DNA from: Candidatus Woesearchaeota archaeon
GTDB taxonomy: Archaea > Nanobdellota > Nanobdellia > SCGC-AAA011-G17 > PNOQ01
Reading direction: 5' to 3'
Assembly (NCBI GenBank): GCA_964603065.1
Contig: CAZRTL010000005.1
Span: 4,700 to 68,699, forward strand
Length of the DNA stretch: 64,000 nt
The first letter of the stretch is position 1. Each line of letters begins with the position of its first letter. The position numbers and the translations under genes were made by a program. Below, piece by piece: positions 21,315 to 46,547 of the stretch. The notes under the pieces are model-generated. The model did no database searches, was not told the DNA's origin, and saw nothing but the letters and a program-made list of their open reading frames with translations.

Positions 21315-22457
21315 CTATTTCAACTTCCTAATCTTCTCTAACTCTTCATTAAAAATCTTAACTTCTTCCAAAGTGTTATACAAATAAAAACTAGCCCGAG
21401 CACTACCCTTAATTTGCCTAGAATTATACCAAGAGTGAGCACAATGCATACCGCTCCTAATCATAATGTTCTTACTATGGTCTAATAAACCAGCAACCTC
21501 ATGAAAATCAATTTTAGGGATATTAAAATTAAATATTCCTCTCTCACCCTTAAAACCAATTTCCTTAATTTTATCTTTATCAACAGCTTTAACTAACTTT
21601 TTCTCATGATCTTCAATATTAGACATACCAACCTTACTCAAAAATTTAACCGCCTCTCCAAAGCCTAAAATCCCAGAATAATTCTGCAATCCTGCTTCAA
21701 ATCTATGAGGCAAACTCTCCAAAACATAACTATCATAACTACTATCCGAAACGGTTTCTCCACCAATCAAAAAAGGCTTCATATCATCCAAAATCTTTTC
21801 TTTAACATACATAGCCCCAGTTCCAGTAGGACCCAACATTTTATGTCCAGAGAAAGTTAAAAAGTCAACATCTAATTTTTTAACATTAATTTCTTTATGG
21901 GGAGCAGCTTGTGCAGCATCAAAATGAACTTTCGCTTTATTCTCATGCGCTATCTTAACTATTTCCCTAACTGGCAAAGTGTATCCATCAATATTACTTG
22001 TATAAACAAAACTAACCATATCATAATTTTTAATCGCCTCAGAAAATTTTTCTAAATCAAAAGTATAATCTTCTTTACTCCTCAAAACTCCATATTTGAA
22101 TTTTTGCCAAGGTAGTAAGTTAGAATTATGTTCTCTGTCTGTAAGTAAAACTTTATCAAACTTAAATGAATTAGACAATAAATTTATACTTTCACTAGTG
22201 TTTTTTGAAAAAACAATTTCACTTGATTTCTTTGCTCCAATAAATTTCTGAATTAATTTTCTAGCGTTATCCATCTCGCCATCTAATTTCAAACCAAACT
22301 TATGAACACTTCTACCTGAACAAACAGGATACTCACTGTAATATTCATTGATCTTATCTATAACTTGTTTAGGCCTCAAAGACATACATGCACTATCTAA
22401 ATATACTATATTCTTTTTCAAAATTGGAAAGTTCTCTCTTATTTTTTCAACATTCAT
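21315..22457 (-). CDS. cysteine desulfurase (class V aminotransferase, SufS/Csd type)
   Basis: FSGHKMLGPTGTGAMYV PLP-lysine region and IRSGMHCA catalytic Cys loop. Confidence 0.85.
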   Translation of the reverse strand: MNVEKIRENFPILKKNIVYLDSACMSLRPKQVIDKINEYYSEYPVCSGRSVHKFGLKLDGEMDNARKLIQKFIGAKKSSEIVFSKNTSESINLLSNSFKFDKVLLTDREHNSNLLPWQKFKYGVLRSKEDYTFDLEKFSEAIKNYDMVSFVYTSNIDGYTLPVREIVKIAHENKAKVHFDAAQAAPHKEINVKKLDVDFLTFSGHKMLGPTGTGAMYVKEKILDDMKPFLIGGETVSDSSYDSYVLESLPHRFEAGLQNYSGILGFGEAVKFLSKVGMSNIEDHEKKLVKAVDKDKIKEIGFKGERGIFNFNIPKIDFHEVAGLLDHSKNIMIRSGMHCAHSWYNSRQIKGSARASFYLYNTLEEVKIFNEELEKIRKLK

Positions 22458-29937: not shown

Positions 29938-30014
29938 AAAAAAGAAAATTACATATCCTTTTTAAAAGTTTTCAAAAAAATAGTTTTATAAACCTTCTAT
30001 TTTTCAATCTTAAT

Positions 30015-30923
30015 ATGTGTAATAGATGTAAAACAAAACCTGTAATAAAGCTTCCAAATAGTAATATCTCTCTCTGCAAATCATGCTTCATAAAATACTT
30101 TGAAAGAAAAGTTAGAAAAACAATAAGACAATACAAACTATTCAAAAAAGGTCAACACATCGGAGTAGCCTTATCTGGAGGAAAAGATTCTCTTACAACT
30201 TTGTACATATTAAACAAAATAACAAAACCTCAGAAAATAACAAAAATAACTGCAATCGCAATAGATGAAGGGATAAAAGGATATCGAGACGAAACTCTGA
30301 AGTTTGCAAAAAAAGTTTGTAAAGAGTTAGACATCCCACTAAAAACAACATCATATAAAAAAGAATTCGGAAAAACTCTAGATCAAATACTTAAGAAAAA
30401 CAAAATAAAGCCTTGTACAGTATGTGGAGTTTTCAGAAGATTTTTACTAAATAAACACGCTCAGAAATTAAAATTTGATATTATTGCTACTGGGCATAAT
30501 TTAGATGATGAGGCCCAATCTGTTCTAATGAACCAATTTAGAAATAATATAACTGCCTCAGCTCGTTTAGGCCCAATAACTGGAATAAAATCTGATAAAA
30601 AATTCATAAGAAGAATAAAACCTCTTTATTTTCTAACTGAAAAAGAGATTATGACTTACGCATATCTAAAAAACCTAGCAACTCCTTTCAATGAATGTCC
30701 ATACTCAAAAAATTCATATAGGGGAGAAATAAGAAACCTAATTAACAATTTTGATAAAAAATATCCCTCATCAAAACATTCAGTAATAAATTCATTTATG
30801 GAAATACTACCCTTATTAAAAGAAAATTATAAAAGTGGAGAATTAAAATATTGTAAATCTTGCGGAGAACCTTCTTCAAAAGAAATTTGCCAAACTTGTA
30901 ACTTAATAAGGGAAATTGTATAA
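30015..30923 (+). CDS. tRNA 2-thiolation PP-loop ATPase (TtuA/NcsA/Ncs6 family)
   Basis: N-terminal CxxC...CxxC zinc finger, SGGKDS PP-loop, C-terminal CKSCGEP...CQTC zinc finger. Confidence 0.8.
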   Translation: MCNRCKTKPVIKLPNSNISLCKSCFIKYFERKVRKTIRQYKLFKKGQHIGVALSGGKDSLTTLYILNKITKPQKITKITAIAIDEGIKGYRDETLKFAKKVCKELDIPLKTTSYKKEFGKTLDQILKKNKIKPCTVCGVFRRFLLNKHAQKLKFDIIATGHNLDDEAQSVLMNQFRNNITASARLGPITGIKSDKKFIRRIKPLYFLTEKEIMTYAYLKNLATPFNECPYSKNSYRGEIRNLINNFDKKYPSSKHSVINSFMEILPLLKENYKSGELKYCKSCGEPSSKEICQTCNLIREIV

Positions 30924-31214
30924 ATGGAAGTAGCACAAATATTAGGATGGATTGCAACTTTTTTATTTTCTATAATGATTATTCCACAAATGATTAAGAC
31001 AGTTAAATCAAAAGACACAAATGGTGTTAGTTTACTCCTATTCATAATATTTTTAGTCGCCAACATAATAGCCCTAACTTATGCCATTTTGATCTCACAA
31101 TCACCTTTAATAATAAAATATGGTATTGCTATTATAACAACTGTTATATACATCATATTATTTTTATTCTACTTTACAAAAAACAAGAAAAAAATCAGAT
31201 TTTACTCTCCATAA
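30924..31214 (+). CDS. 3-TM PQ-loop (SemiSWEET/MtN3-like) membrane protein
   Basis: IPQMIKTVKSKDTNGVS PQ motif; 96 aa with 3 TM; TAAATG junction with the upstream gene. Confidence 0.5.
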   Translation: MEVAQILGWIATFLFSIMIIPQMIKTVKSKDTNGVSLLLFIIFLVANIIALTYAILISQSPLIIKYGIAIITTVIYIILFLFYFTKNKKKIRFYSP

Positions 31215-31259
31215 TATTACGGAAAATTATTTATACTGAAAACAAACATAACTAAGAAA

Positions 31260-31457
31260 ATGAAAATAACAATAATAGATGAAAAAAACGATGTAAAAAA
31301 ACAATTAGAAATTTCTTCAATTAAAGAAGCAGCAGAAAAACTAAACATTAATTTAGAAGAGGTAATCATAACAAGAAACAATGAATTAGTAACTGAAGAT
31401 TCAAAACTAAAAGACAAAGATGAGTTAAAATTTCTATCCGTTATTTCTGGCGGATAA
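31260..31457 (+). CDS. ubiquitin-like sulfur carrier (MoaD/ThiS/SAMP/TtuB family) ending in Gly-Gly
   Basis: 65 aa with beta-grasp-like pattern; C-terminus ...VISGG. Confidence 0.65.
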   Translation: MKITIIDEKNDVKKQLEISSIKEAAEKLNINLEEVIITRNNELVTEDSKLKDKDELKFLSVISGG

Positions 31458-31494: not shown

Positions 31495-32109
31495 ATGAGT
31501 TTAAAACAAATTTTAGTAGGAACTGGAATTATGCTTTGTTCAATTTTACCTACTTTAAGTTTTGCTCAAGAAACAATACCAAGAATATATCATGGTTTAG
31601 GGGCATATGCTAGCACAAATTCAGAGGTTACACAAGGAAACATGTCCCTAGGTTTTTGTTATTCTCCTACAGAATTGTATGGCATTAAACCTTGGGTAAA
31701 TATAGGAGTCAAAACAGAGTCAAGATTTCCTGGAAAGGCAAATACAATGATAGAAATAGGTGGAGCCCTAGAGAGAGACTTAGGAATATATGATTTAAAA
31801 TTGGGGCTGGGCGGATCATGGTCAAGTTCAGGTTCATCCAAATATGTAGCAGGACAAGAAGCAGGAGAAAGCGCAGGAATCTTAACAGAAACAGAATTAA
31901 AAGAATTAAACACATACATAGTTAAATCTTTTACAAAAGAAGAAAAAAAGAAAAAGGGTATAAAAGAATCCCACATAGATTTATATGCAGGTTTTGCCCA
32001 AAAATGGGGAGAATTCAAAACTGAATCTACGGAGGGCATAGAAAACCCAAATAAACCTTTCAAATTCAAAGACCCAGTTTTCAAGGCAGGAGTAAGAGTT
32101 TCCTTCTAA
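31495..32109 (+). CDS. secreted hypothetical protein
   Basis: Signal peptide. Confidence 0.4.
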   Translation: MSLKQILVGTGIMLCSILPTLSFAQETIPRIYHGLGAYASTNSEVTQGNMSLGFCYSPTELYGIKPWVNIGVKTESRFPGKANTMIEIGGALERDLGIYDLKLGLGGSWSSSGSSKYVAGQEAGESAGILTETELKELNTYIVKSFTKEEKKKKGIKESHIDLYAGFAQKWGEFKTESTEGIENPNKPFKFKDPVFKAGVRVSF

Positions 32110-35091: not shown

Positions 35092-35841
35092 TTATTTTTT
35101 TCCACACCTATCTTCAAACTTCTTTCCAGCTAAATAATCATATTCACCATTGCACGTTTTACAATTTTTCTTCTTATCAACTTTAATTTTATCGAAATTA
35201 TTCTTATCCAATCTAACATAAACTAAATCTTCTTCTGATTTCTTACCAATTAATAACTTCAAGGCCTCATTGACCTGTAAACTTGAAACTAGCGAGCTAA
35301 TACCATTCAATACTCCAAGAGTTTCACAAGAATCAATACTTTTCAAACCTGAAAAAATACAACCATAACAAGCTTTCTTGGGAGAATAAACATAAACATA
35401 ACCTTTATTTTGAATAGCAGAAGCAAATACACAATTTATTTTGTTTTTAACACAAAAATCATTAAGTAAAAATCTCGTTTGCATATTATCTGTGCAATCT
35501 AAAACTAAATCAACTTTATTTATTTTCTTAATATTCTCCGAACTCAAACTTTCATTATATTCTTTAATAGAAACTTTTGGATTAACTTCCTTTAAATATT
35601 TCTTAGCAACTTTAACTTTTGATTCATGAATATCACTAAATTTAAACAAATGCTGCCTCTGTAAATTAGAAGATTCAATAAAATCATGATCAAATAATAT
35701 TAGTTTTTTAACTCCACTTCTAACTAACAATTCACTTGTCAAACTACCCAAGGCCCCAACTCCAATTACAGCTACTTTTGACTTTTCTAACTTTTTTTGG
35801 GCTTTCTTTCCAATAACTAACTCTTGTCTTGAATAATCCAT
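35092..35841 (-). CDS. E1-like ThiF/MoeB/UbaA activating enzyme
   Basis: VAVIGVGALGS nucleotide-binding loop; CYGC and CKTC zinc-site cysteines. Confidence 0.8.
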   Translation of the reverse strand: MDYSRQELVIGKKAQKKLEKSKVAVIGVGALGSLTSELLVRSGVKKLILFDHDFIESSNLQRQHLFKFSDIHESKVKVAKKYLKEVNPKVSIKEYNESLSSENIKKINKVDLVLDCTDNMQTRFLLNDFCVKNKINCVFASAIQNKGYVYVYSPKKACYGCIFSGLKSIDSCETLGVLNGISSLVSSLQVNEALKLLIGKKSEEDLVYVRLDKNNFDKIKVDKKKNCKTCNGEYDYLAGKKFEDRCGKK

Positions 35842-35892: not shown

Positions 35893-37206
35893 ATGGTAGA
35901 GCTATTATCTCCAGTAGGAGATTTCGAAACATTGCAAGCAGCAATAAAATCCGGAGCCAATGCAGTTTACTTTGGAATAAAAGGGATCAATATGCGATCT
36001 GGCTCAGCTAGAAACTTCAGTAAAGAAGAATTAAAAGAAGTAATGGAAACTCTCCACAAAAATAAGGTAAAGGGATATTTAACACTTAATACAATAATTT
36101 ATGATCATGAGCTAGAAAGAGTAAAAGATATTTTAAAAGAAGTAAAAAACTCAAAAGTTGACGCAGTAATTGCAACAGATATGGCAGTAATACAATTATG
36201 CAATGAAAAAAATATAGAAGTACACATGTCAACTCAATTATCAACTTCAAATTACGAAGCAGTAAAATTCTTTTCAAAATTCTCGCCCAGAATGGTTCTA
36301 GCAAGAGAATGTAGCTTAGAACAAATAAAATCAATAAAAGAAAAAATAGAAAAAAACAATCTAAATTTTAATGGAAGAAAAATAGAACTAGAAACATTTA
36401 TTCATGGAGCCTTATGTGTATCTTATTCTGGAAGATGTTTTATGTCTCAATTTCAAAATAGATTATCCGCAAATCGTGGTCAGTGTCTACAAGAATGTAG
36501 AAGACAATATAAATTAACGGATTTGGAAAACCCCAAAAAAGAACTAATTTTAGATGGAAACTATGTATTATCTCCGAAAGATTTGTGTACCCTGCCCATA
36601 TTAGACAAATTAGTAGAAGCTAAAATAGATGTTTTCAAAATAGAGGGGCGTGCAAAGGGGGCAGATTATATTTATACTGTAACAAAAGCATATAGAGAAG
36701 CACTAGATTTAATCGAAAAAAATAAATTTACAGACAAAGAAAAACTAAAACTACTAAAAGAACTAGAAAAAGTTTTCAACAGAGGGTTCACAACCAATTT
36801 CTTTTTAGGAGCCCCAACAAACAATTCTTGGACAAAATTTTATGGTTCAATTTCAAAAGAAAAAAAGAAACAAATAGGAAAAGTAACTGAATACTATCCA
36901 AAATTAAAAGTTGTAGCAATAAAAATAGAACAAGATGAACTGAACGAAAACGATGAAATTTGTTTTATAGGAAAATCAGTCGGATTTTATAAAACTAAAG
37001 TTAAAAAAATGAGATTAGAAGATAAGGAAATAAAAAAAGCTAAAAAGGGAGATGAAATTTCTTTTAAAGTTGAAGAAAAACTGAAACCTGATGATCAAGT
37101 ATATTTAATAAAGAAAATAAAACTTACTAAAGAAGAAAAAAATTTATACAAAAAATTTGGAGAGATAACAATTTACAAACCATTCAAGCAAACAAAACGC
37201 ATATAA
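35893..37206 (+). CDS. peptidase U32 family protein
   Basis: VELLSPVGDFETLQAAIKSGANAVYFG N-terminal U32 signature; 437 aa. Confidence 0.8.
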   Translation: MVELLSPVGDFETLQAAIKSGANAVYFGIKGINMRSGSARNFSKEELKEVMETLHKNKVKGYLTLNTIIYDHELERVKDILKEVKNSKVDAVIATDMAVIQLCNEKNIEVHMSTQLSTSNYEAVKFFSKFSPRMVLARECSLEQIKSIKEKIEKNNLNFNGRKIELETFIHGALCVSYSGRCFMSQFQNRLSANRGQCLQECRRQYKLTDLENPKKELILDGNYVLSPKDLCTLPILDKLVEAKIDVFKIEGRAKGADYIYTVTKAYREALDLIEKNKFTDKEKLKLLKELEKVFNRGFTTNFFLGAPTNNSWTKFYGSISKEKKKQIGKVTEYYPKLKVVAIKIEQDELNENDEICFIGKSVGFYKTKVKKMRLEDKEIKKAKKGDEISFKVEEKLKPDDQVYLIKKIKLTKEEKNLYKKFGEITIYKPFKQTKRI

Positions 37207-37229
37207 GTTTTCCCCCTTTCTCCAAAATC

Positions 37230-38084
37230 ATGGAAAAACCCGATATATACTTTGTGATAACACCAAATTGCAATTATTCTTGTAAACATTGTTATATAAC
37301 TGCAGGTCCAAAAAGAAAGTCCGAAACAATTTCCGAAAAAGATTTTAGACAATCGGTAAGACACTTACCTAAAATCGCTCTAAATTTTGGTATGTCTGGA
37401 GGAGAAATTTTTACTATCAAAGATACATTATATAGTTTTTTAGATTATTTAAATTTTGAAAATCGGAGAAGAGAACGAAAGGGGCAAGGCCAGATAGATA
37501 TATGGCTTCAAACAAATGGTTTCTGGGGAACTAACGAAGATCGAACAAATAAGATCTTGGAAGAATTAGCTTCTTTTAATGTTATGGATTTAAACTTTGC
37601 TGCCGACGATAAATATCACCGAGATCAAGGTGCAAATAAAAAAAAGATAGAGAAATTAATAAATATAGCAAAAGAAAGTAGACTTTTCGATGAGATATCT
37701 TTCATAGGAACAGAAAGGAGAGAACATATAGTTCCAATGGGTAGAGCAAAAGAAATGAATCTTAGATTATCTGAAATAAGAGCAAATCCCGAATTTGTTT
37801 GCAACGAGGCTCTAGATAAATATGATTTATCAATAATGTACAATGGAGATGTGAGAATATGTTGTATGCTACAACTACCTTCCATGGGAAATATCATTAA
37901 AGAACCTTTAGTGGATATAGTTAGAAGAGCAAAAAAAGATCCCTTATTTTCATTAATGAACAGAGAAGGAATAGAAGGGCTTCTAAAAAGGGACGGAATG
38001 AAAAAGAAAGATATTAGAGAATTGGTGGATAAACAAGGTACTTGTGGAGCTTGCTTTAAAGTTTATAGAAAAGAGATTGAATGA
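37230..38084 (+). CDS. radical SAM protein with a Cys-rich C-terminal (SPASM/twitch-like) region
   Basis: CNYSCKHC (Cx3Cx2C) plus C-terminal VCNEA...CCML...CGAC. Confidence 0.75.
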   Translation: MEKPDIYFVITPNCNYSCKHCYITAGPKRKSETISEKDFRQSVRHLPKIALNFGMSGGEIFTIKDTLYSFLDYLNFENRRRERKGQGQIDIWLQTNGFWGTNEDRTNKILEELASFNVMDLNFAADDKYHRDQGANKKKIEKLINIAKESRLFDEISFIGTERREHIVPMGRAKEMNLRLSEIRANPEFVCNEALDKYDLSIMYNGDVRICCMLQLPSMGNIIKEPLVDIVRRAKKDPLFSLMNREGIEGLLKRDGMKKKDIRELVDKQGTCGACFKVYRKEIE

Positions 38085-38155
38085 GCCTGGCCGGATTCGA
38101 ACCGGCGACCTCTGCCTTGTAAGGGCAACGCTCCACCAGGCTAAGCTACAGGCTC
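38082..38155 (-). tRNA. tRNA-Val (anticodon TAC)
   Basis: Cloverleaf folded by hand: acceptor GAGCCUG/CAGGCUC; D arm GCUU/GAGC; anticodon stem UUGCC/GGCAG with loop CUUACAA; T arm GCCGG-UUCGAAU-CCGGC; discriminator A; no encoded CCA. Confidence 0.85.
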
Positions 38156-38225
38156 ATAGAAAAAAGACTTAATTTTAATTTTAAAAACCTTTCTATTTCA
38201 AAATTAAAAAGAAAAAATATGGAGA

Positions 38226-45494: not shown

Positions 45495-46010
45495 ATGGCA
45501 CAATTAAGAAAAGCAAACGCATACAAGAAAACGACAAGAGCCTACACCAGAAAATCAAAATATAAGAAAAAAGGTTTCATAAAGGTAGTTCCAGCTTCAA
45601 AAATAATCAAATTCAATATGGGGGATCTAAAAAAAGAATTTCCAAAAAAAGTAAAATTAATTTCTAAAGATACATTCCAAGTAAGACATAATGCTTTGGA
45701 ATCTTGTAGAACTTTAGTTAATAGACAATTATCGAAAAGATTTGGGAATAAAGGTTATAGATTCACAATAAACCAATTTCCCCACCATGTTCTAAGAGAA
45801 AATAAGATGCTTACAGGTGCTGGTGCAGATAGAATGCAATCCGGAATGAAACACTCCTTTGGAAAGGCAATGGGTACAGCAGCTCAGTTAAAACCTGGAA
45901 AAACAATATTTACAGTAGATGTAAATGAATCTGACGTAGAATTTGCAAAAAAAGCTCTGGAAAAAACAAAGTCAAGAATTCCTGGCAAAGTTAGAGTAGA
46001 GATAATTTAA
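45495..46010 (+). CDS. rpl10e: 50S ribosomal protein L10e (uL16)
   Basis: MAQLRKANAYKK...RxxxGADRMQSGM; 171 aa. Confidence 0.85.
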   Translation: MAQLRKANAYKKTTRAYTRKSKYKKKGFIKVVPASKIIKFNMGDLKKEFPKKVKLISKDTFQVRHNALESCRTLVNRQLSKRFGNKGYRFTINQFPHHVLRENKMLTGAGADRMQSGMKHSFGKAMGTAAQLKPGKTIFTVDVNESDVEFAKKALEKTKSRIPGKVRVEII

Positions 46011-46077
46011 TTCTAATAAATATCAATATGGTCCAATCGAAACATTTATATACTACTTAGTAGTAAGTAAAAATACA

Positions 46078-46467
46078 ATGACAATTTATAGAATAGTTTC
46101 GAAAACCTCATGGAATAGGAGTTCTGCTAATCAAGAAGATGATCAATTTATCGATGCTAGTGATGAAACTGAAGCCAGAACCAAATATAACCCAATGGGC
46201 AGCAAAGATACTATTGAATCAGTAGTTGAAACACCATTTAAAGAAGTAAATGATTTAAAATTTTATTTAGTGGGATTGTCTCCAAATTGGTTTACTAGGG
46301 ATCAAAGAGCATCACATTACTTCTTAGTTCAAGCTACAGACGGTAGAAATGCAACCAAAATCATTGAAAAAAATAAAGTTGGAAAACATGGAACATCAAC
46401 AAAAGTAAATGATATTAGATATTTAGGAAAACCGGATTTAAATCAAGATATAACCCAACTTCTATAA
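46078..46467 (+). CDS. hypothetical protein
   Basis: ORF only. Confidence 0.3.
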   Translation: MTIYRIVSKTSWNRSSANQEDDQFIDASDETEARTKYNPMGSKDTIESVVETPFKEVNDLKFYLVGLSPNWFTRDQRASHYFLVQATDGRNATKIIEKNKVGKHGTSTKVNDIRYLGKPDLNQDITQLL

Positions 46468-46547
46468 ATACAAAATATTTATCTAAAATTTGTTTAGCAA
46501 AACATTTATATAATTCCATTCAATTCTAAAGAGTAAAAGGTGATATA

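Follow-up and report, generated by a model that had tools for sequence, protein, structure and literature searches.

A SemiSWEET-family gene apparently inserted between the tRNA thiolase and ubiquitin-like sulfur carrier genes in a lineage of Woesearchaeota-type archaea

Introduction

The closest described systems for the locus analyzed here are the tRNA thiolation pairs TtuA-TtuB of Thermus thermophilus and Pyrococcus horikoshii and NcsA-SAMP2 of Haloferax volcanii and Methanococcus maripaludis. TtuA and NcsA belong to the TtcA-TtuA subclass of PP-loop ATP pyrophosphatases. In TtuA/NcsA-type thiolases, three conserved cysteines bind the catalytic [4Fe-4S] cluster (PMC10067955). A second point of comparison is provided by the bacterial SemiSWEETs (LbSemiSWEET 4QNC, EcSemiSWEET 4X5M and TySemiSWEET 4RNG), proteins of ~90 aa that fold into a three-helix bundle with a PQ motif in TM1. 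The sugar pocket of LbSemiSWEET involves residues T13, W48 and N64 (PMC5972207). SemiSWEETs of DPANN archaea are mentioned in the literature we searched only as presumed sugar transporters (PMC10936187), and our literature search returned no paper naming both PQ-loop and TtuA.

We analyzed a window of 64,000 nucleotides from a marine Woesearchaeota-type archaeon (DPANN), in which a PQ-loop gene is located between a thiolase gene and the gene of a GlyGly-ended sulfur carrier. A first-pass annotation had read this arrangement as an operon in which a PQ-loop transporter, resembling cystinosin or SemiSWEET, could link cystine or cysteine import to tRNA thiolation. A conserved coupling of this kind, if true, would have pointed to a new way in which host-dependent archaea supply sulfur for tRNA thiolation.

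Results

We compared the locus to the thiolation systems outlined above. It comprises three genes in the order ttuA, PQ and thiS, together with two candidate promoter boxes:

29985-29990, plus strand: TTTATA box upstream of ttuA, starting 30 nt before its ATG, a putative promoter
30015-30923, plus strand: ttuA, predicted TtuA/NcsA-type [4Fe-4S]-dependent tRNA 2-thiouridine synthetase, 302 aa (Pfam, NCBIfam and PDB matches)
30924-31214, plus strand: PQ gene, SemiSWEET-family PQ-loop membrane protein, 96 aa, three TM segments (Pfam, AlphaFold2 and Foldseek)
31230-31235, plus strand: TTTATA box in the PQ-thiS spacer, starting exactly 30 nt before the thiS ATG
31260-31457, plus strand: thiS, TtuB/SAMP2-like ubiquitin-fold sulfur carrier, 65 aa, ending in VISGG (Pfam ThiS, PDB TtuB)

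Pfam, NCBIfam and PDB matches agree with the gene identities originally proposed: the first gene encodes a TtuA/NcsA-type thiolase, the second a PQ-loop protein with 3 TM segments and the third a ThiS/TtuB-like Ubl ending in GlyGly. The 65-aa Ubl ending in ISGG is indeed found 45 nt after the PQ gene, across a spacer at 31215-31259 (+). The ttuA stop and the PQ start had been described as sharing TAAATG; this hexamer is present at 30921-30926, but the TAA (30921-30923) directly abuts the ATG and no nucleotide is shared, whereas relatives lacking the PQ gene at this site have a true 4-nt ATGA overlap of ttuA with thiS. Identical copies of the ttuA-PQ-thiS order are located on six contigs of 2.9-262 kb from five metagenome samples (JGI and ENA), and a diverged version (91% amino-acid identity, dS ~0.9) has the same order on four further contigs (L066-L069).

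The thiolase contains the PP-loop domain ATP_bind_3 (1.4e-18) and TtuA_LIM_N (2.3e-07, the latter above cut-off). A PP-loop motif, SGGKDS, at residues 54-59 (30174-30191) fits the SGGxDS pattern. Cys-134, Cys-137 and Cys-228 line up with the cysteines in CxxC and ECP of PH0300 TtuA and represent candidate [4Fe-4S] ligands, and Zn-finger-type cysteine quartets are found at the N terminus (Cys-2, Cys-5, Cys-21, Cys-24) and at the C terminus (Cys-280, Cys-283, Cys-292, Cys-295). All of these features are shared with both TtuA and NcsA, and the scores for the U54-modifying TtuA and the U34-modifying NcsA families are similar. PDB matches to P. horikoshii TtuA (5.4e-58) and M. maripaludis NcsA (7.2e-57) are near-equal, and the NCBIfam equivalog scores of 228 bits for NcsA (1.5e-67) and 225 bits for Pyrococcus-type TtuA (8.1e-67) lie below the respective curated cut-offs of 500 and 450. 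The target is most likely wobble U34, with U54 as the alternative; we favor U34 on biological grounds alone rather than from the sequence, because the host is a mesophilic DPANN archaeon with a single thiolase copy.

The thiS product matches Pfam ThiS (9.4e-08, above cut-off), and among PDB entries it is closest to T. thermophilus TtuB (5ZTB, 9.3e-06), with SAMP2 at 3.7e-03. Two further genes of the window may belong to the same sulfur relay:

21315-22457, minus strand: SufS-family class-V aminotransferase (Aminotran_5, 1.2e-99; SufS model, 3.9e-104, below cut-off)
35092-35841, minus strand: ThiF/MoeB/UbaA-type E1-like adenylyltransferase, 249 aa (ThiF, 5.8e-66)

The E1 also matches the model of UbaA, the SAMP-activating E1, at 2.2e-42, below that model's cut-off. 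It is syntenic with ttuA-thiS in relatives, is located ~4 kb from the trio in the window and is probably the activator of the Ubl, including its C-terminal thiocarboxylation. The SufS-type gene lies ~7.5-8 kb upstream of the trio on the opposite strand, a relative position that is kept in relatives, and its product probably is the cysteine desulfurase and sulfur source. With these two enzymes ~4 kb and ~8 kb away, the complete sulfur relay suggested earlier is plausible. The module thus resembles TtuA-TtuB and NcsA-SAMP2 in its thiolase motifs, in its 65-aa beta-grasp GlyGly carrier with TtuB as best PDB match, in having genes for a ThiF-type E1 and a cysteine desulfurase in the vicinity, and in the adjacent or overlapping ttuA and thiS genes of relatives. 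It differs from these systems in that the window E1 (35092-35841) carries no rhodanese (TtuD-like) domain and in that an inserted transporter gene separates ttuA from thiS in the window lineage.

We characterized the PQ protein, which matches the Pfam families PQ-loop (1.3e-12) and MtN3_slv (8.1e-08) and has its PQ motif at residues 21-22 (30984-30989) in TM1. The AlphaFold2 model consists of three helices (residues 3-29, 37-56 and 60-93; pLDDT 80.7), and every one of its top 13 Foldseek matches in the PDB is a SemiSWEET (TM-scores up to 0.74). By sequence, the protein matches SemiSWEET 4QNC in the PDB with E = 2e-8; its scores for the NCBIfam models SemiSWEET_2 (42.1 bits, cut-off 80) and SemiSWEET_1 (16 bits, cut-off 200) are both below cut-off. 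The likeness to SemiSWEET seen in the first pass thus stands, but that to cystinosin does not. The cystinosin match is marginal both by sequence (E = 0.46 for the PDB homologue) and by fold (rank 34, E = 6.6), and TIGR00951 (cystinosin) scores 19.8 bits and does not reach its cut-off of 192. Cystinosin and the PQLC lysosomal transporters have the PQ-loop repeat and the fold unit of the MtN3 clan in common with our protein, but they contain seven TM segments and two PQ-loop repeats, whereas the window protein, at 96 aa, consists of one three-TM unit only. Nothing in our analysis speaks in favor of cystine as the substrate.

The PQ protein has the length, predicted three-helix bundle and TM1 PQ motif of the bacterial SemiSWEETs and retains equivalents of LbSemiSWEET Ser-34, Tyr-51 and Pro-59. 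The pocket residues T13, W48 and N64 correspond to Phe-15, Ala-50 and either Tyr-66 (ungapped) or Ile-70 (HMMER alignment), so that the pocket Trp in TM2 and Asn in TM3 of LbSemiSWEET are absent, with Ala-50 and Tyr-66 or Ile-70 in their place. Phe-15, Ala-50 and Tyr-66 are invariant across the DPANN family of this protein (26 members aligned), as are the polar residues Asn-47 and Lys-65 in TM2 and TM3. Because the sugar-pocket residues are replaced, the substrate may be a non-sugar. We assign the protein to the SemiSWEET family and, from the structure prediction, to the SemiSWEET fold; sugar specificity should not be assumed. A tblastn search for a second PQ-loop copy in the window returned 30924-31214 as the sole copy.

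We analyzed the linkage between the PQ gene and the thiolation genes from both sides. A neighborhood survey had been set beforehand as the test of the proposed operon, and the PQ ORF turned out not to be conserved next to ttuA in related genomes. The PQ-anchored survey comprised 42 loci from distinct species-representative genomes with PQ homologues 59-84% identical; its reach was homologues of at least 59% identity, all from the Woesearchaeota/Pacearchaeota/Nanoarchaeota group. In none of the 42 species loci was a ttuA or thiS match found within ~6 kb of the PQ homologue, and no neighbor family was common to more than 4 loci. The TtuA-anchored survey comprised 16 informative lineages. The PQ gene is absent from the ttuA locus in 14 of them, including those with 93% and 91% identical TtuA, and is found at ttuA/thiS only in the window lineage and in the sister lineage L066-L069, exactly at the site of the ancestral overlap. 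Direct adjacency of ttuA and thiS with no PQ gene is seen in P0121 (93% TtuA identity), L055/L063 (91%), L049/L050, L056 and L057 (85%), L064 (83%), L065 (81%), L058 (80%), L051/L052 (70%) and L072 (62%). Among these ten adjacent lineages, the 4-nt ATGA overlap is present in every case in which we examined the sequence of the junction or its gene calls. The thiS gene lies immediately upstream of ttuA in L059 and L071, and ThiI is located between thiS and ttuA in L070. In L053/L054 (86% TtuA identity), the ttuA|thiS junction is occupied by other, unrelated genes, and this site thus accepts insertions; a Pfam search of these inserts gave no match and no mobile-element genes. The metagenome scan with TtuA, whose single-protein patterns were too specific, yielded 8 loci only, of which L055-L059 were informative; two truncated loci (L060, L061) and a 26%-identical paralogue (L062) were left out. 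Together, these comparisons show that the PQ gene was inserted recently, and only in this lineage and its sister, into a ttuA/thiS pair whose genes normally overlap; any direction and mechanism of this relocation would be putative.

In the closest other genomes, the PQ gene lies between rpl10e and PEP synthase and is flanked by direct repeats of the rpl10e 3' end (48 nt, 90%, in L007; 38 nt, 84%, in L008). These repeats indicate that the gene is an insertion at this position as well. Genome CAYYFK01 has overlapping ttuA and thiS genes (L050) and an 84% identical PQ gene between rpl10e and PEP synthase (L007), in a region collinear with 42.4-52.4 kb of the window at 80-89% amino-acid identity. 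The window slot is occupied by a different gene:

45495-46547, plus strand: rpl10e/PEP synthase slot, with rpl10e at 45495-46010 and PEP synthase/PPDK from 46548
46078-46467: 129-aa orphan ORF filling this slot

This ORF was considered as a second PQ copy and rejected, as it shows no relationship to the PQ gene and matches neither Pfam nor NCBIfam models. The search for flanking direct repeats around the window and L066 insertions returned only low-complexity A-rich matches of 70-75% identity, which we judged meaningless. Identities between the window lineage and CAYYFK01 are 84% for PQ, 85% for TtuA, 89% for L10e and 84% for PpsA, and the PQ gene resembles its neighbors in GC (25.8%) and GC3 (23.7%). 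A foreign origin was rejected because of this neighbor-like composition and a divergence that tracks the flanking housekeeping genes and the genome at large, which argues for relocation within the lineage. All three genes of the trio are under purifying selection, with an omega of 0.05 for PQ versus the sister lineage, and the ttuA-PQ stop/start abutment is conserved in both lineages (dS ~0.9). The arrangement therefore is stable, it is tolerated at the least, and co-expression of ttuA and PQ may confer an advantage specific to this lineage.

For this archaeal host we used a TATA-box analysis calibrated on the window's own genes in preference to a bacterial sigma-70 promoter/terminator scan. 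TTTAWA starting 27-34 nt 5' of the ATG is present in 21 of the 44 window genes with an upstream gap of at least 40 nt (~2.3% expected by chance). The box at 29985-29990 would be the promoter of a leaderless ttuA-PQ transcript, and the PQ gene has no TATA box within 60 nt upstream. The thiS gene has its own box at the canonical position, and the trio is thus probably not one obligate transcription unit in the window. Judged by TATA-box geometry alone, this suggests that ttuA and PQ are co-transcribed and that thiS is read from its own promoter. Allowing up to 3 mismatches, the core of the 45-nt spacer occurs only once in the window. In the sister lineage, the PQ-thiS spacer is only 7 nt long and contains no TATA box, which would imply a three-gene transcript.

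Discussion

It is very likely that the locus represents an ordinary ttuA-ttuB module together with a relocated SemiSWEET-family passenger gene. The conserved functional unit would be the two-gene module ttuA(ncsA)-thiS(ttuB). By analogy to TtuA/TtuB and NcsA/SAMP2, the ThiF-type E1 would adenylate the C-terminal Gly-Gly of the Ubl, sulfur would ultimately be transferred from the SufS-type cysteine desulfurase to give the Ubl thiocarboxylate, and the PP-loop [4Fe-4S] thiolase would use this thiocarboxylate to generate a 2-thiolated tRNA uridine. The SemiSWEET-family gene would be a vertically inherited, single-copy housekeeping transporter gene with no fixed genomic partner, which may have relocated into the ttuA/thiS ATGA overlap in the common ancestor of the window and sister lineages. 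It would have lost any promoter of its own and now be read as a passenger from the ttuA promoter, and in the window a TATA box at the canonical -30 position may have been restored to thiS within the new spacer of 45 nt. The main value of the locus is cautionary, as a recent gene insertion can give rise to directly adjoining stop and start codons and to a plausible story.

An unlikely alternative to simple relocation is that the PQ gene forms a mobile cassette of one gene, for which ttuA|thiS and rpl10e|ppsA would be preferred integration sites and which a dedicated recombination mechanism, either site-specific or target-duplicating, would move. The direct repeats of 48 and 38 nt in L007 and L008 would fit such a mechanism, but the window and L066 insertions have no comparable flanking repeat, and no integrase or transposase was detected beside any PQ copy. 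Both slots hold alternative cargo (PQ or unknown ORFs at ttuA|thiS, PQ or the orphan 129-aa ORF at rpl10e|ppsA), yet Pfam is blank for the L053/L054 inserts and for the 129-aa ORF. Similarly, PQ has no conserved neighbor across the 42 species, but weak synteny is general in DPANN genomes and ordinary rearrangement could give the same pattern. More widely, these comparisons provide evidence that closely related DPANN genomes shuffle small genes among a limited number of variable slots, in some cases with 38-48-nt target-site duplications. A joint reading goes further and combines a DPANN transporter for a non-sugar metabolite required by these host-dependent archaea, cassette mobility with target duplication and, in the window's clade, a capture of the gene by the ttuA promoter that was selected for co-expressing sulfur-nutrient uptake with the sulfur relay; we regard it as improbable. 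This reading draws on the high conservation of the family relative to TtuA, on the invariance of Ala-50, Tyr-66 and Lys-65 in the 26 aligned members and on the 38-48-nt repeats of L007/L008.

We consider it highly improbable that the PQ protein imports cystine, cysteine or another sulfur source as a member of a thiolation operon co-regulated with the relay. The idea of an embedded, coupled operon member conflicts with our surveys, in which linkage is seen at 0 of 42 PQ loci and is missing in 14 of 16 TtuA lineages, including relatives with 91-93% identical TtuA. The PQ gene abuts ttuA and has no box of its own, and the two are thus very probably co-transcribed, but thiS in the window has its own TATA box, and in sister genomes the orthologous transporter functions from unrelated locations. 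That the arrangement has been kept in two lineages at dS ~0.9 would also be expected from coupling, although L053/L054 contain a different insertion at the very same junction. The replaced pocket residues would allow for a non-sugar substrate, but similarity to cystinosin is marginal. The proposed tie between cystine or cysteine import and tRNA thiolation thus meets with a lineage-confined arrangement, a SemiSWEET-like rather than cystinosin-like protein and a separate thiS promoter box. Because the PQ gene is a lineage-specific insertion into the thiolase/carrier pair, we see no evidence for a link between nutrient import and tRNA thiolation. That chimeric metagenome assembly or binning placed the PQ gene between ttuA and thiS can be dismissed almost entirely, since nothing specific speaks for it beyond all data being metagenome assemblies and the same order recurs on six contigs from five JGI and ENA samples and, as the 91% identical sister version (dS ~0.9), on four more.

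The PQ family itself is unusually conserved in DPANN archaea: its members retain 70-84% identity between species in which TtuA identity is only ~60%. An unusually conserved SemiSWEET-like family that lacks the canonical sugar-binding residues means that sugar-transporter annotations in this group may be wrong.

The ttuA-PQ-thiS locus

We analyzed a gene trio in the window (31% GC; from a marine DPANN archaeon, Woesearchaeota/Nanoarchaeota-like), composed of a tRNA thiolase gene (ttuA), a gene for a three-helix PQ-loop protein (PQ gene) and a sulfur carrier gene (thiS). The relevant features are:

29985-29990, + strand: TTTATA box of ttuA, at -30
30015-30923, + strand: TtuA/NcsA-type thiolase, 302 aa (Pfam ATP_bind_3 (PP-loop) 1.4e-18, TtuA_LIM_N 2.3e-07)
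30924-31214, + strand: PQ gene, 96 aa (Pfam PQ-loop 1.3e-12, MtN3_slv 8.1e-08)
31230-31235, + strand: TTTATA box of thiS, at -30, within the 45-nt PQ-thiS spacer
31260-31457, + strand: thiS, 65-aa ThiS-family protein with an ISGG end, 45 nt past the PQ gene
35092-35841, - strand: ThiF-type E1, by family match
21315-22457, - strand: SufS-family class-V aminotransferase, by family match

The coordinates of the trio in the first-pass annotation are exact, and its gene identifications hold up. The ttuA TAA stop directly abuts the ATG of the PQ gene (TAAATG, 30921-30926). The trio is not an assembly artefact, since six contigs, derived from five metagenome samples, carry identical copies of it.

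The thiolase contains a PP-loop (SGGKDS, residues 54-59) and two cysteine quartets, and Cys-134, Cys-137 and Cys-228 align with the three ligands of the [4Fe-4S] cluster (PMC10067955). It matches the NCBIfam models NcsA (1.5e-67) and Pyrococcus-type TtuA (8.1e-67), both far under the equivalog cut-offs, and is equidistant from Pyrococcus horikoshii TtuA (5.4e-58) and Methanococcus maripaludis NcsA (7.2e-57), so that these matches do not separate U54 from U34 specificity. We favor U34 as its target on biological grounds: a mesophilic host, a single copy and the universality of wobble modification. The nearest solved relative of the carrier is Thermus thermophilus TtuB (9.3e-06), followed by SAMP2.

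The PQ protein belongs to the SemiSWEET family

The nearest solved relatives of the PQ protein are bacterial SemiSWEETs (4QNC, 2.2e-08; 4X5M; 4RNG), whereas the match to a cystinosin homologue is no better than E = 0.46. Its AlphaFold2 model has three helices (pLDDT 80.7), and the top 13 PDB fold matches are all SemiSWEETs, with TM-scores up to 0.74, cystinosin following at rank 34. The first-pass annotation had suggested cystine or cysteine import, and nothing in these comparisons points specifically to cystine. The pocket residues of LbSemiSWEET, T13, W48 and N64 (PMC5972207), align with Phe-15, Ala-50 and Ile-70 (Tyr-66 if ungapped). Phe-15, Ala-50 and Tyr-66 are invariant in an alignment of 26 family members, as are the polar Asn-47 and Lys-65. 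The fold and the replaced pocket residues together argue for a SemiSWEET-fold family member for which sugar should not be assumed as substrate, any substrate assignment being a prediction; the sugar-transporter annotation of this DPANN protein may thus be wrong. The family (window gene and loci L007-L048) is strongly conserved, with 70-84% identity and 34 invariant positions in the 26 aligned sequences, across species whose TtuA is only ~60% identical.

No fixed genomic neighbor for the PQ gene

We next consider the proposal that a transporter is functionally embedded in the sulfur relay, which would lead one to expect the PQ gene beside ttuA in related genomes. With the 26-member alignment we found 42 loci, each in a different species-representative genome, whose PQ product shares 59-84% identity with that of the window; the survey thus covers the DPANN subfamily at ≥59% identity. 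In none of the 42 did tblastn with the window TtuA and ThiS find either gene within ~6 kb of the PQ gene. This absence is meaningful because in other loci the search detected homologues with as little as 49% (TtuA) or 35% (ThiS) identity. Clustering of all adjacent ORFs revealed no neighbor family common to more than four of the 42 loci, so the PQ gene is not tied to any particular partner in the genome.

A TtuA-anchored survey sampled 16 lineages. Here, ttuA directly adjoins thiS with nothing between in P0121 (93% TtuA identity), L055/L063 (91%), L049/L050, L056 and L057 (85%), L064 (83%), L065 (81%), L058 (80%), L051/L052 (70%) and L072 (62%), with a 4-nt ATGA overlap wherever junction sequence or gene calls were inspected. 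In L059 (49%) and L071 (61%), thiS immediately precedes ttuA, and L070 (61%) has the order thiS-thiI-ttuA; thiF mostly lies no more than a few kb away. What is conserved is therefore the pair ttuA and thiS, accompanied by thiF in the vicinity. Among the lineages sampled, the order ttuA-PQ-thiS occurs only in the window lineage and its sister GCA_964474465 (L066-L069; TtuA and PQ protein each 91% identical to the window). The first-pass annotation had named a lack of conservation of the PQ gene next to ttuA in related genomes as grounds for refutation, and on that measure the proposed embedding in the relay fails.

The ttuA|thiS junction is a recurrent insertion site

Comparison of the ancestral junction, ...ATAAAATGAAAATA..., with that of the window, ...TAA|ATG-PQ-...|ATGAAAATA, places the PQ insert exactly at the former ttuA/thiS stop/start overlap. 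A third lineage (86% TtuA identity), sampled in the metagenome that also yielded the window, carries unrelated ORFs of no known function at this position, without a Pfam match:

L053 4910-6185 and L054 4910-6186: 257- or 359-aa ORF on the minus strand, plus small ORFs

Insertions have therefore recurred at this junction.

Of the 44 window genes with an upstream gap of ≥40 nt, 21 have a TTTAWA box that starts 27-34 nt before the ATG (chance ~2.3%), with a sharp peak at -29/-30 in about half of the genes with an intergenic gap. A peak of this kind is the hallmark of archaeal promoters for leaderless mRNAs, which implies that this genome mostly uses them. ttuA and thiS each have a box, and none lies within 60 nt upstream of the PQ gene. 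Judged from box geometry, the most likely arrangement is a ttuA-PQ bicistron and a separate thiS promoter, perhaps with read-through. The sister lineage has a PQ-thiS spacer of 7 nt and lacks a box for thiS, implying a three-gene transcript there. By separating the thiolase gene from the carrier gene, the insertion broke their ancestral ATGA coupling; the window lineage seems to have made up for this by gaining a new thiS promoter.

Between window and sister, dS is 0.86-0.97 for all three genes, and ω is 0.06 (TtuA), 0.05 (PQ) and 0.10 (ThiS). The trio has therefore been stably inherited in a narrow clade, with all three genes functional. Insert-free relatives are equally close in TtuA (L063, dS 1.05), which puts the insertion close to where this small clade begins. 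The likely explanation is an ordinary ttuA-ttuB(-thiF) thiolation module that, in one small clade, received a housekeeping gene of the SemiSWEET family, itself prone to change its place; the ttuA promoter would drive it there as a passenger. A lineage-specific benefit of co-expression seems improbable.

The PQ gene elsewhere

In the related genome CAYYFK01, ttuA and thiS overlap (L050), and the orthologue of the PQ gene (84% identical) is flanked by the genes for ribosomal protein L10e and PEP synthase/PPDK (L007). The same holds for L008; L007 and L008 represent the two closest species-level genomes, and both regions are collinear with window 42.4-52.4 kb (80-89% amino-acid identity). Direct repeats bracket the PQ gene in L007 (2966-3013 and 3312-3359; 48 nt, 90% identical) and L008 (5922-5959 and 6270-6307; 38 nt, 84% identical), and the PQ gene is therefore an insertion in this slot too. 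The repeats arise from duplication of the rpl10e 3' end, and the duplicate, read in another frame, encodes the C-terminal tail of the PQ protein there. They resemble the target-site duplication that a cassette-like insertion would leave; that a dedicated cassette-mobility mechanism moves the gene has a low probability in our view. PQ divergence matches that of adjacent housekeeping genes, and GC and GC3 are typical of the window, which speaks against foreign acquisition and indicates relocation within the lineage.

In the window, the rpl10e|PEP-synthase slot holds an orphan 129-aa ORF (46078-46467, + strand) without a family match in Pfam or NCBIfam. AAACATTTATATA upstream of this ORF recurs downstream, in the PEP-synthase promoter region, hinting at an insertion that duplicated the promoter.

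Other neighboring genes

The gene 3' of thiS (31495-32109, + strand) encodes a 204-aa product with a hydrophobic, signal-peptide-like N terminus and no family match. In the relatives L049, L051 and L064, ORFs of 186-205 aa, likewise without a family match, occupy that position. A Yip1-domain gene follows this ORF in several relatives and is missing from the window. In the Woesearchaeota relative L070 (1632-3912), a gene for ThiI (THUMP domain), the s4U8 synthase, lies between thiS and ttuA with thiF upstream, a compact cluster joining two different tRNA thiolation enzymes. Divergent from thiF in the window is a 'peptidase U32' gene (35893-37206) whose top NCBIfam match, under cut-off, is TrhP (1.4e-62), the prephenate-dependent tRNA U34 hydroxylase. 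A radical-SAM gene (37230-38084) and tRNA-Val(UAC) (38081-38156, minus strand) come next, and this group (35893-38156) may form a small cluster devoted to tRNA wobble modification.
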